Below, one piece after another: positions 11,359 through 29,223 of a stretch of DNA of 64,000 nt (positions are counted from its first letter, which is position 1; each line of letters opens with the position of its first letter). The stretch covers positions 1-64,000 of the IMG/VR virus record IMGVR_UViG_2724679237_000005. One strand, written 5' to 3'. The stretch is from a virus. Its lineage: Duplodnaviria; Heunggongvirae; Uroviricota; Caudoviricetes. The position numbers were made by a program, and so were the translations under genes. Below the pieces are notes generated by a model that searched no databases, was not told where the DNA came from, and saw only the letters and a program-made list of their open reading frames with translations.

Positions 11359-11374
11359 GTAAGTATGTACTTAC
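11359..11374. promoter_or_regulatory. B-type operator inside a sigma70-like promoter
   Basis: gtaagtatgtacttac. The minus strand reads TTGTAA-17 nt-TAGAAT with the palindrome filling the spacer. Confidence 0.55.
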
Positions 11375-27800: not shown

Positions 27801-27820
27801 ATAGGTAAACACTTACTTAC
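27801..27820. promoter_or_regulatory. B-type palindromic operator-like motif
   Basis: ataggtaaacacttacttac. Confidence 0.5.
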
Positions 27821-28410
27821 TACTTGTTATAAACAAAACCAATATCTTTCTTGTGAGGCATATCTGCTGCGGAAAAAGCTGCGATCTTCGCGAGTCGATC
27901 ACATATTTCATTTTCACGATGCCCGGCGTGGCCTTTAACCCACTTCCAGCGAACATTATGTCGACTTGCGGCCTCATCCAGACGCTTCCACAGATCAACA
28001 TTCTTTACCGGTTTTTTGTCAGAAGTCATCCATCCATTGCGTTTCCACCATTTCATCCACAGTGTCATGCCGTTTTTCAGATACTGGCTATCAGAGTGCA
28101 AAATAACGTTGCATGGATATTTCAAACGCTCCAGCCCGATAAGTGCCCCCATCATCTCCATGCGGTTATTGGTGGTGCTATGAAAACCATCTGAGAACTC
28201 GCGTTCCTCTCCACGATACTGAAGAACGATACCGTAACCGCCCGGGCCACCCGGATTTTTAAGGCAAGAGCCATCACTGAAGATTTTCACGGTTTTAAGC
28301 TGGGGATTGAACTCTACGACAGGCGTTGTGGGATTGGTGCGGGGAGAATTTTTGTTTTTGGCTTTTTTGCGAGTTTTTGCTTGCGATCGGGCTGGTGTCT
28401 TCGTCGTCAT
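27820..28410 (-). CDS. ribonuclease HI with a basic N-terminal extension
   Basis: ATG at 28410 follows SD caggag. RNase H catalytic pattern is present: [34 protein letters not shown]. Confidence 0.85.
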
Positions 28411-28974
28411 ATAAACTCCTGAATCAAGCGCCGCGCCGATTTTTTCCTCGCGCGTGCGCACACGCGTGCGTGTTAATAATTATTAAAATAAACAAATTAC
28501 TTCCCAGAACAGGTTTTTATAAACCTGAACTGAACGAACGAAGTGAGTGAAGTTCACCTCGAACGAAGTGAGAGGTTGTCTTTTCAGGTAATACTCTCCC
28601 AGGGAGGTGAGTATAAAATTCCTCACCAACCTGGTCGTTTCATAACCTGAAAAGCTATGGTCTAAGTCTACTGCCAGCTTAGACTTGGGAAGTTATGGAT
28701 GACAGCACCCCAGAACCGAGATCTTCCCACACTTTATGAAGGGGAGTACTGGATTCAACCTCTCGAAACCCCCCAGACTCGACAATCATAAAGTGACCCT
28801 TGTCTCTGCTCACTTTGGTTCCCCCTTCCCCGACACCTAAACGGCACCAGTTCTACGCTGGTAGTGAGCTTTTTTAAACCTGACGCCAGTGACGCTTACC
28901 CCCACCCATCAGGTCGAGTCTCCAGTCTACGACTGGAAACTATCAGATCTTAGCACTTACAATTCATCTTATGA

Positions 28975-28993
28975 ATAGTTTGTACTTATCTAT
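28975..28993. promoter_or_regulatory. degenerate B-type motif upstream of the long non-coding leader
   Basis: atagtttgtacttatctat. Only the right half matches the consensus. Confidence 0.3.
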
Positions 28994-29223
28994 CATTGCG
29001 ATTGATTATTTTCTCGACCATGTAGTTGAACATTCAAGGCAAACACCTCGTTGATCAACTCACCTAAAAGCTGTTCAACAAGTTCGCGATGCTCCCCAAG
29101 ATGCAAGCACTTAATTGCCCATTCGTACAAGTTGAAAGCCTGCTCGCGATCTTTCATCATTTCACGGGCTTGGGCCAGAAAATCGCTCTCTACGAGCGCA
29201 ACGACATTAGTCGGGTATGACAT
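28993..29223 (-). CDS. hypothetical small protein
   Basis: 76-aa ORF, helical. Confidence 0.5.
   Translation of the reverse strand: MSYPTNVVALVESDFLAQAREMMKDREQAFNLYEWAIKCLHLGEHRELVEQLLGELINEVFALNVQLHGRENNQSQ

Follow-up and report, generated by a model that had tools for sequence, protein, structure and literature searches.

Evidence for an unannotated structured RNA gene of about 440 nucleotides upstream of rnhA in an SSU5/pHCM2-like phage-plasmid

The DNA analysed here (the window) is a stretch of 64,000 nucleotides (nt) from a Caudoviricetes virus, positions 1 to 64,000 of IMG/VR record IMGVR_UViG_2724679237_000005. At the locus in question the minus strand carries every gene, in the order dam methylase, a 76-aa open reading frame (ORF), a gap of 581 nt, rnhA, genes of unknown function and a TerB-like gene. 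A first-pass annotation, made from the sequence alone, had marked the gap as an ORF-free, hairpin-dense region and had considered an independent non-coding RNA (ncRNA), a long regulatory leader or a cis-acting DNA site. The context was described correctly, as the gap (window 28412-28992) sits between rnhA and the 76-aa ORF (28993-29223), and the rnh start at its end is indeed preceded by a Shine-Dalgarno (SD) sequence, GGAG, 7 nt before the ATG. We find that 28940-28499 on the minus strand is very probably an independent and so far unannotated gene for a structured RNA of about 440 nt. The features of the locus are:

28940-28499, minus strand: conserved RNA core, kept across E. coli, Salmonella, Klebsiella, Enterobacter and Cronobacter elements
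28975-28970, minus strand: predicted -35 element TTCATA, its TT invariant in a variable stretch, followed by a 17-nt spacer
28955-28947, minus strand: predicted extended -10 element TGcTAAGAT, with the pattern TGnTAnnAT in all three clades
28940-28918, minus strand: predicted transcription start at an invariant G (G28940), 7 nt after the -10 element, and 5'-terminal stem-loop
28498-28470, minus strand: U-rich (A+T-rich) tail, variable in sequence in every clade
28441-28466: G+C-rich palindrome of alternating purines and pyrimidines, CACGCACGCGTGTGCGCACGCGCG, followed on the minus strand by GAGG-A6-TCGGCGCGGCGC (to 28412) and then by the rnh SD sequence
28979-28992: degenerate palindrome copy; it follows the stop codon of the 76-aa ORF directly and lies a short way upstream of the RNA promoter
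28993-29223, minus strand: 76-aa ORF, phrog_5343, function unknown; found next to the RNA on its upstream side in all clades
27820-28410, minus strand: rnhA, RNase HI with a basic N-terminal extension (PF00075, E=7.6e-44); next gene downstream of the RNA only in the main clade

No other DNA of the neighbourhood is as conserved as the gap. When 10 diverse relatives (Salmonella, Klebsiella, Enterobacter and Cronobacter) were aligned with the window, identity per 50-nt bin was 85-99% at positions 28501-28900, whereas the flanks were lower (rnh 67-86%, the 76-aa ORF 66-84% and dam 68-79%), and the megablast matches in Klebsiella span 28395-28918 only, without the genes. By blastn the region was found in 687 PLSDB plasmids, 658 of which cover at least 80% of its length, and in 232 of 5426 complete E. 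coli genomes (about 4%), where nearly all copies are single and plasmid-borne. None of 30 sampled E. coli matches carried an annotated feature, and in the records of relatives the gap held nothing except a 44-aa 'hypothetical protein', CYRAN_81, of phage Cyrano.

The sequences fall into three clades. Members of the main clade are 89-100% identical. An intermediate clade (L237, 82% identical) was reached through the neighbouring 76-aa protein, whose family proved narrow when used to find distant homologues in this way (29 clusters, identity at least 61%). In the distant clade identity is about 69% where the core can be aligned and lower end to end; this clade comprises Cronobacter sp. JZ38 (L004), the IMG/VR contigs L017, L030 and L088, and the metagenome contigs L221, L222, L227 and L232. 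Across the clades the gene downstream of the RNA is rnhA, a 103-aa ORF or a 207-aa ORF; it is not rnh in Cronobacter sp. JZ38, in L241 and at the metagenomic distant-clade loci. The RNA is present as one copy per genome, and a covariance model of its domain I (model R1) detected no second copy in the genome.

Folding of the region beats that of shuffled sequences on both strands (z=-3.8 for the minus and -3.6 for the plus strand). Covariation, which the first-pass annotation had proposed as a check, supports the minus-strand helices by compensatory changes across clades. From an alignment of 20 non-redundant sequences (A3), RNAalifold gave a consensus of 101 pairs in 17 helices, with 32 pairs in which both sides have changed and pairing is kept. 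The pairing was canonical in 99.4% of the alignment cells, and none of 500 shuffles reached the observed pairing or covariation; when the 3' partners were slid by 1-3 columns, pairing was 33-49% and only 1-4 compensatory pairs remained. About 100 base pairs are kept over the three clades (about 100%, 82% and 69% identity). Within the main clade H2 changes from ACCUGAUG/CGUCAGGU to GUCUGGUG/CACCAGAC and to AUCUGAUG/CAUCAGAU, and H3, H4, H7 and H12 likewise vary there, so that compensation is not confined to the deep split. In L237 paired single-base deletions are found in H3 and in the long helix 28654-28642 / 28592-28580. Read as a plus-strand RNA, the same pairs are canonical in 86.3% of the cells; G-U pairs make up 13% of the cells and some of them are invariant. 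The G-U pairs place the RNA on the minus strand.

Several of the stems listed from the letters alone belong to this fold, all with support from covariation: ggtgag/ctcacc is the inner stem of H14, gtctaag/cttagac is H12, tgggaag/cttccca is H10 and ccagt/actgg is the 5' hairpin. No such support was found for gtgaa/ttcac, a stem with a 1-nt loop whose bases belong to H16 (UGAACU/AGUUCA), and the supposedly terminator-like CATAGCTTTTC turned out to be the 5' strand of H13. The direct repeat CGAACGAAGTGAG is exact and 13 nt long (28535-28547 and 28560-28572), its copies being the loops of the adjacent hairpins H15 and H16. Among further pairings tried, those of four CUCAC/GUGAG segments were kept in two clades and failed in the third (L237), and were therefore treated as coincidence; a giant terminator helix of the 3' UGGGAAG with CUUCCCA was discarded as it is not kept in the distant clade. 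The parts of the proposed fold are:

28918-28802, minus strand: domain I, with closing helix CUC/GAG, H2, and H3 enclosing H4 and H5
28914-28878, minus strand: H2, the long hairpin of domain I
28868-28863 / 28814-28809, minus strand: H3, enclosing H4 (28850-28830) and H5
28800-28580, minus strand: domain II, the multi-helix centre, with H7/H8, H10/H11, H12, H13 and H14
28795-28787 / 28738-28730, minus strand: H7, with hairpin H8
28763-28756, minus strand: 5' half of the candidate pseudoknot, AGAGGUUG, invariant, in the loop of H8
28729-28723 / 28692-28686, minus strand: H10, with H11
28684-28660, minus strand: H12, domain II
28659-28641, minus strand: H13, alternative to the long helix 28654-28642 / 28592-28580 around H14
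28634-28599, minus strand: H14, domain II
28578-28571, minus strand: 3' half of the candidate pseudoknot, CAACCUCU, invariant, overlapping the 5' strand of H15
28575-28526, minus strand: twin hairpins H15 (28575-28557) and H16 (28556-28526), with the direct repeat CUCACUUCGUUCG as loops
28513-28503, minus strand: H17, small hairpin CCU..GGG, followed by the 3' limit of conservation, UUCUGGG (about 28499)

The RNA folds into a domain at the 5' side, a centre of many helices and a pair of hairpins at the 3' side. Model R1 of domain I scored 136 bits in the window, 118 in L237 and 88 in the distant clade, and the junction sequences ACCAGCG and GGGGAAGGGGGAACCAAAG of this domain are invariant. The two halves of the candidate pseudoknot are perfectly complementary, giving 8 bp that are invariant in 20 sequences, with one compensatory change from G-C to U-A in L237. 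In H15 and H16 the loop consensus CUUCGYUC is kept in all three clades, while one loop position varies freely among members of the distant clade. Between clades of about 69% identity ACCAGCG, GGGGAAGGGGGAACCAAAG, AGAGGUUG, GAUCUYGRUUCUGGGGU and ACAACCUCUCACUnCGUUCGAGG are all invariant. As junctions and loops are invariant though about one position in three differs, we infer that a defined tertiary fold underlies the working of the RNA; the candidate pseudoknot, which joins the H8 loop to the linker ahead of H15, would be part of that fold. Such a pattern seems to resemble tertiary-folded RNAs (ribozymes, riboswitch aptamers and RNAs of the GOLLD/ROOL/OLE type) more than base-pairing small RNAs or simple protein sponges.

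Upstream of the core the sequence is variable save for the invariant TT, the 17 nt and the (G)TGnTAnnAT of the predicted promoter. The extended -10 element reads TGATAAAAT, TGCTAACAT and TGTTAACAT in the three clades, and the -35 counterpart in the distant clade is TTTACC at the same 17-nt spacing. The hairpin at the predicted 5' end folds in 26 of 26 distinct variants, with at least seven unrelated stem sequences, at -4.5 to -16.8 kcal/mol; the window version reaches -15.0 kcal/mol and its shuffles about -4. Such drift in sequence under a constant fold is typical of stem-loops that protect a 5' terminus. On the plus strand a promoter-like site at 28934-28963 (TGGAAA, 18 nt, TACAAT; 9/12) diverges from the RNA promoter region and overlaps it, and is probably a chance match with its -35 element within the non-conserved 5' hairpin.

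At the other side conservation stops short of the next start codon by 90-230 nt, with a variable spacer between, and the 3' end of the RNA probably lies within the tail at 28470-28498 or beyond. The palindrome at 28441-28466 may be outside the RNA. In the distant clade CGCGCGAG(G)AAA is found again, about as far from the RNA as here. Read on the plus strand, the palindrome forms a hairpin, CGCAC-ACGC-GTGCG, followed by a T-rich run, which may be a terminator of antisense transcription.

Expression of the region could be read from a study of E. coli LF82 that re-analysed RNA sequencing (RNA-seq) data on phage Cyrano (PMC9928086). It should be noted that the values are published per-gene data for Cyrano, which is 97% identical here, and not for the element of the window. 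CYRAN_81 (78657-78791, inside domain II) was listed there as a 'moron', 12-fold over the prophage median in LB medium (PMC9928086, Table 1). Its log2(fpkm+5), where fpkm is fragments per kilobase per million mapped reads, was 6.8-6.9 in LB and 9.0-9.3, 6.9, 8.2-9.0 and 10.3 in the other samples, the last of these from macrophages at 6 h, with a top value of 10.35; the corresponding values of the neighbours were 3.1-5.8 for the upstream CYRAN_80 and 2.6-5.0 for rnh (PMC9928086, S1 Table). From these figures the segment lies 12-40 times above both neighbouring genes in Cyrano lysogens. With its neighbours at background CYRAN_81 agrees with the working definition of a moron in that study, and it is among the few strongly expressed Cyrano features, beside the gene of the S24 LexA-like repressor CYRAN_98 (PMC9928086). 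As CYRAN_81 is high and rnh is low, we conclude that a stable transcript exists in lysogens which is not co-expressed with rnh.

The earlier statement that no ORF of more than 36 codons with an SD sequence exists in the gap holds only in part. ORFs of 44 and 48 codons are present, but relatives carry 1- and 2-nt indels inside them, and of the ORFs of at least 20 aa, on both strands, none stays intact throughout the 20 relatives tested. With these indels, the stop codons in relatives and the lack of a conserved ORF, a small protein-coding gene was rejected. Nor does the gap look like a type I toxin-antitoxin system of the hok/sok kind, as no conserved small ORF was found, the products are not hydrophobic and Sok gave no match. 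Compensated pairs, strand specificity and absence of coding potential are together what is found for structured ncRNA genes in general. A scan against Rfam, likewise proposed in the first-pass annotation, did not place the region in a family: Rfam 15 (4227 models, including GOLLD, ROOL, OLE, HEARO, C4, RNAI, Sok, 6S, tmRNA, RNase P and riboswitches) gave no match at the gathering threshold over the whole window, and the best hit of a permissive scan, a hepatitis C virus element at 21 bits against a threshold of 56, was at chance level (E=0.07). A scan for tRNA and tmRNA found nothing, and in the literature on ncRNAs of SSU5, pHCM2 and phage-plasmids we found no description of this RNA.

The 801 bases around the region are 99% identical to Escherichia phage CMS-2020a and pO104-type plasmids as well as to non-mobilizable E. 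coli and Shigella plasmids of about 110 kb, 97-98% identical to phages PhiR41_1 and Cyrano, and 86% identical to Salmonella phage SSU5. Because of the identities to CMS-2020a, PhiR41_1, Cyrano and SSU5, the replicon of the window is a phage-plasmid of the SSU5/pHCM2 type. In Cyrano (OV696614; L234-L236) the counterpart of the replication cluster of the window encodes T4-like UvsW, UvsY, a gp32-like single-stranded DNA-binding protein, a RecA/UvsX-like protein and Pnkp, along with Pol III alpha, a DnaQ-like exonuclease, helicase, primase, ligase, RNase HI, methionyl-tRNA synthetase and three tRNAs.

A palindrome of about 20 bp, ATA-GGTAAGTACTTACC-TAT, matches 11 times in the window where 1.5 matches are expected, with 14-mers at 11362, 23753, 27804, 30018, 34853, 39569, 44253, 49229, 52510, 52749 and 61786. 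Nearly all copies are in the short gaps that separate genes in the long early/replication operon of the minus strand, where they stand closely behind a stop codon or closely ahead of the next ribosome-binding site; in the copy at 27804 the right half is TTTACC and TATCTT follows 17 nt on. The palindrome could be an operator, an RNA hairpin for processing or termination, or part of a promoter. What had been called a degenerate 'B-type motif' at the upstream edge of the gap is a degenerate copy of this palindrome (28979-28992), and the SSU5, Klebsiella and Enterobacter relatives have a perfect GGTAAGTACTTACC at the same site.

In a sister lineage of more distant SSU5-like elements (L238 and L239; Logan SRR28417476 and SRR28417470, identical to each other here) the flanking proteins are 56-72% identical to those of the window, and between a 74-aa gene and RNase H lies an unalignable gap of 712 nt (L238 2726-3437) that folds with z=-5.4. 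By eye we read in it a good -35/-10 pair, TTGAAG and TATTAT spaced by 17 nt, ending 7 nt before a long 5' hairpin. This gap had no match in Rfam, with model R1, or in the plasmid, phage and IMG/VR collections. It suggests that a second, analogous RNA may lie at this position, which would be a positional 'RNA slot'.

Some further matches were set aside. A loose-pattern scan of genome contigs gave 120 loci, mostly random, with L134 and L192 as the only genuine ones. The former (Buttiauxella gaviniae ATCC 51604, NZ_LXEP01000001, L134 4782-5163) is a 5'-truncated copy of the RNA region, 91% identical and without domain I, joined in frame to the 3' end of a 387-aa SbcD-like ORF, and looks like a remnant of phage-plasmid recombination. 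In L240 (Logan SRR8137545) T stands in place of essentially every C, which looks like the result of assembling bisulfite-converted reads and not like natural variation, and the sequence was excluded. Twelve unrelated metagenome contigs from peat, bog and other sources (L218-L220, L223-L226, L228-L231 and L233) share a 22-nt pattern, AACCTCTCACNNCGTTCGAGGV, which in them is probably a conserved part of some other gene; the rest of the RNA was not found there, the nhmmer matches being 23-29 nt long (68 nt in L226).

We read the region as an independent RNA gene, and not mainly as an rnh leader or a DNA site, because of the covariation, the strand bias, its own promoter and the RNA-seq excess. 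Of the possibilities raised earlier it is thus the independent ncRNA that stands, given the conserved promoter, the covarying 5' stem-loop and remaining pairs, the transcript level, and the presence of the RNA where rnh is no neighbour. Several points weigh against it. The 5' and 3' ends are predicted, the promoter is weak by hexamer score (8/12) and was missed by the promoter scan, and the published counts are per gene, their strandedness unverified. Most compensatory changes stem from one deep split, that of main and distant clades, and the independent events are modest in number. A mechanism in trans is what we infer. Further, there are two cases in which helices that exclude each other are nevertheless conserved together, namely H13 with the long helix 28654-28642 / 28592-28580 and H15 with the pseudoknot; this fits a switch as well as a static fold. 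A scan of the minus strand of the region found no intrinsic terminator, so that the transcript could run on into rnh as a leader. These last points are also those that favour a cis-regulatory, riboswitch- or attenuator-like leader of rnh and the genes beyond, in which alternative folds upon binding of a ligand or protein decide read-through. In every clade the RNA points the same way as the genes that follow it, and a high leader with a low gene in RNA-seq is the pattern of riboswitches in the OFF state, the abundant short RNA of lysogens then being the terminated OFF-state product. The class of the downstream gene differs by clade, however, conservation stops at a variable spacer well before the next start codon, neither a terminator nor an anti-terminator was found conserved at the 3' edge, an RNA of 440 nt and about 17 helices is far above the size of known leaders, and no riboswitch or leader model of Rfam matches. 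Of the 'long regulatory leader with internal attenuator' proposed before, the co-orientation, the missing terminator and the exclusive helices remain, whereas the attenuator is the H13 strand and the RNA is not tied to rnh. We consider such a leader unlikely, although worth keeping in mind, and say the same of an OFF-state origin of the short RNA.

The RNA sits among replication genes, immediately before rnhA in the main clade and before RNase H in the L238 lineage, a position that brings to mind a replication primer or R-loop origin RNA (as ColE1 RNA II or the T4 origins), which would form a hybrid with the downstream A+T-rich DNA and be processed by RNase HI to prime synthesis. The length of about 440 nt with many hairpins is like that of RNA II, the G-runs GGGUGGGGG and GGGGAAGGGGG are followed by the A+T-rich tract and the G+C palindrome, and the element encodes T4-like UvsW, UvsY and gp32 functions. 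Yet the replicon has its own RepA (IncFIB-type) plasmid origin elsewhere, GC-skew analysis found no change or origin signature here, only two G-runs are conserved, the distant clade has no adjoining rnh, and the invariance of loops and junctions is well above what hybrid formation needs. No conserved antisense promoter of the RNA I kind and no Rfam RNAI match were found either, nor a convergent RNA I gene over the 5' part, the sole promoter-like site on the plus strand (28934-28963) pointing away from the RNA; we hold a primer to be very improbable. An immunity RNA of the P4 CI, P1 c4 or N15 CB type, where the transcript or a fragment of it pairs with mRNAs of the phage-plasmid and blocks antirepressor or replication genes in lysogens, would agree with the lysogenic expression together with the S24 repressor CYRAN_98, the duplicated 13-nt motif in hairpin loops, the use of such RNAs by P1, P4 and N15, all phage-plasmids or satellite plasmids, and the unrelated RNA at the same locus of the sister lineage, as for a specificity determinant. 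For this we see a slim chance, since in the 64-kb window, with up to two mismatches allowed, the loop motif was found only as its two loop copies and its complement nowhere, one loop position is free to vary in the distant clade, C4 of Rfam gave no match and the RNA is 5-6 times larger than P4 CI, c4 and CB. When all 11-mers of the RNA were compared with both strands of the 108-kb Cyrano genome, matches were at chance level and no antisense match reached 14 nt; the longest was 13 nt, also chance level, by which an extended antisense regulator of the element's own genes was rejected as well. Finally, there might be no RNA gene at all, and the gap might serve in cis as DNA (as a pac, partition or origin site), hide an overlooked gene for a small protein, or owe its conservation to recent recombination. 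The plus strand folds well too, conservation above that of the flanks could come from recombination, and the annotators of Cyrano called the 44-aa ORF here. Against this stand the strand-asymmetric constraint with its invariant G-U pairs, which also contradicts the DNA site or lytic origin of the first-pass annotation as the main explanation, the compensatory changes across clades of 69-82% identity, the ORFs broken by indels and stop codons in relatives, and the lack of iterons, DnaA-box-like or other repeats in the region beyond the loop motif. We regard it as extremely improbable.

For the independent RNA gene the following picture may be drawn. A conserved sigma-70 promoter with extended -10 element precedes the predicted start at about 28940, and in lysogens, where its transcript is far above those of the neighbours, the RNA behaves as an 'RNA moron' in the otherwise silent early/replication operon. 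It may act in trans as a protein- or ligand-binding RNA or a ribonucleoprotein, for which the twin loop-displayed CUUCGYUC motifs would be the likeliest recognition sites, and its role probably lies in maintenance, immunity or host interaction during the plasmid or lysogenic state and not in the expression of RNase H. Such a folded RNA is favoured because the invariant junctions and loops resemble those of tertiary-folded RNAs, and we think a trans-acting RNA or ribonucleoprotein with the twin loops as recognition elements somewhat probable. More tentatively, and with doubt prevailing, we speculate that it might be the founding member of a new class of large (about 440 nt) tertiary-folded RNAs with a function in lysogeny or the plasmid state, sitting in a modular 'RNA slot' and acting alone or as ribonucleoprotein. 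As candidate functions one may then think of an RNA-based device for immunity, copy number or anti-defence, or of an RNA that senses a ligand or is catalytic.

The region defines a new, widespread and expressed family of large structured RNAs in clinically common phage-plasmids. Phage-plasmids like SSU5 and pHCM2 are also present in S. Typhi, Klebsiella, Enterobacter and Cronobacter and carry resistance genes. Annotation pipelines and Rfam are without this family, and in one case (CYRAN_81) the abundant RNA was mis-annotated as a 44-aa 'moron' protein. With strong covariation, a record of expression and tractable hosts (E. coli LF82 with Cyrano, Salmonella with SSU5), the family is directly testable. 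Large ncRNAs of such complexity have repeatedly proved to be ribozymes, scaffolds of ribonucleoproteins or self-assembling machines.

Compared with known systems, the RNA has features in common with ColE1 RNA II, namely several hundred nt with many hairpins, G-rich segments, a place upstream of an A+T-rich tract and an association with RNase H, but it differs in having no RNA I partner that we could find, no similarity of sequence or structure, a RepA origin in its replicon and loop conservation beyond the needs of a primer. Antisense-type immunity RNAs are used by P1, P4 and N15. Like P4 CI, P1/P7 c4 and N15 CB, the present RNA would be made in the lysogen from a constitutive promoter inside a lytic operon whose downstream genes are off, and it has a duplicated short motif; unlike these RNAs of 70-80 nt, which have complementary target boxes nearby, it showed no such boxes and no match to C4. 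With GOLLD, ROOL, OLE and HEARO/omega-RNA it shares a length in the range of 400-600 nt, many helices supported by covariation, invariant junctions and loops, a home in phages, prophages or mobile elements, a transcription unit of its own and abundance. In contrast to them it matches none of their Rfam models, is confined to one lineage of enterobacterial phage-plasmids and has neither adjacent tRNAs nor an adjacent gene for a partner protein; we know of no twin CUUCGYUC loops in these RNAs. From prophage morons it differs in that its product is a structured RNA and not the annotated 44-aa protein, and in that it is core to its lineage (the 687 plasmids) and not accessory. It is like them in having its own promoter and being on in the lysogen while its neighbours are silent, and the sister lineage L238 has a different cassette in the same slot.

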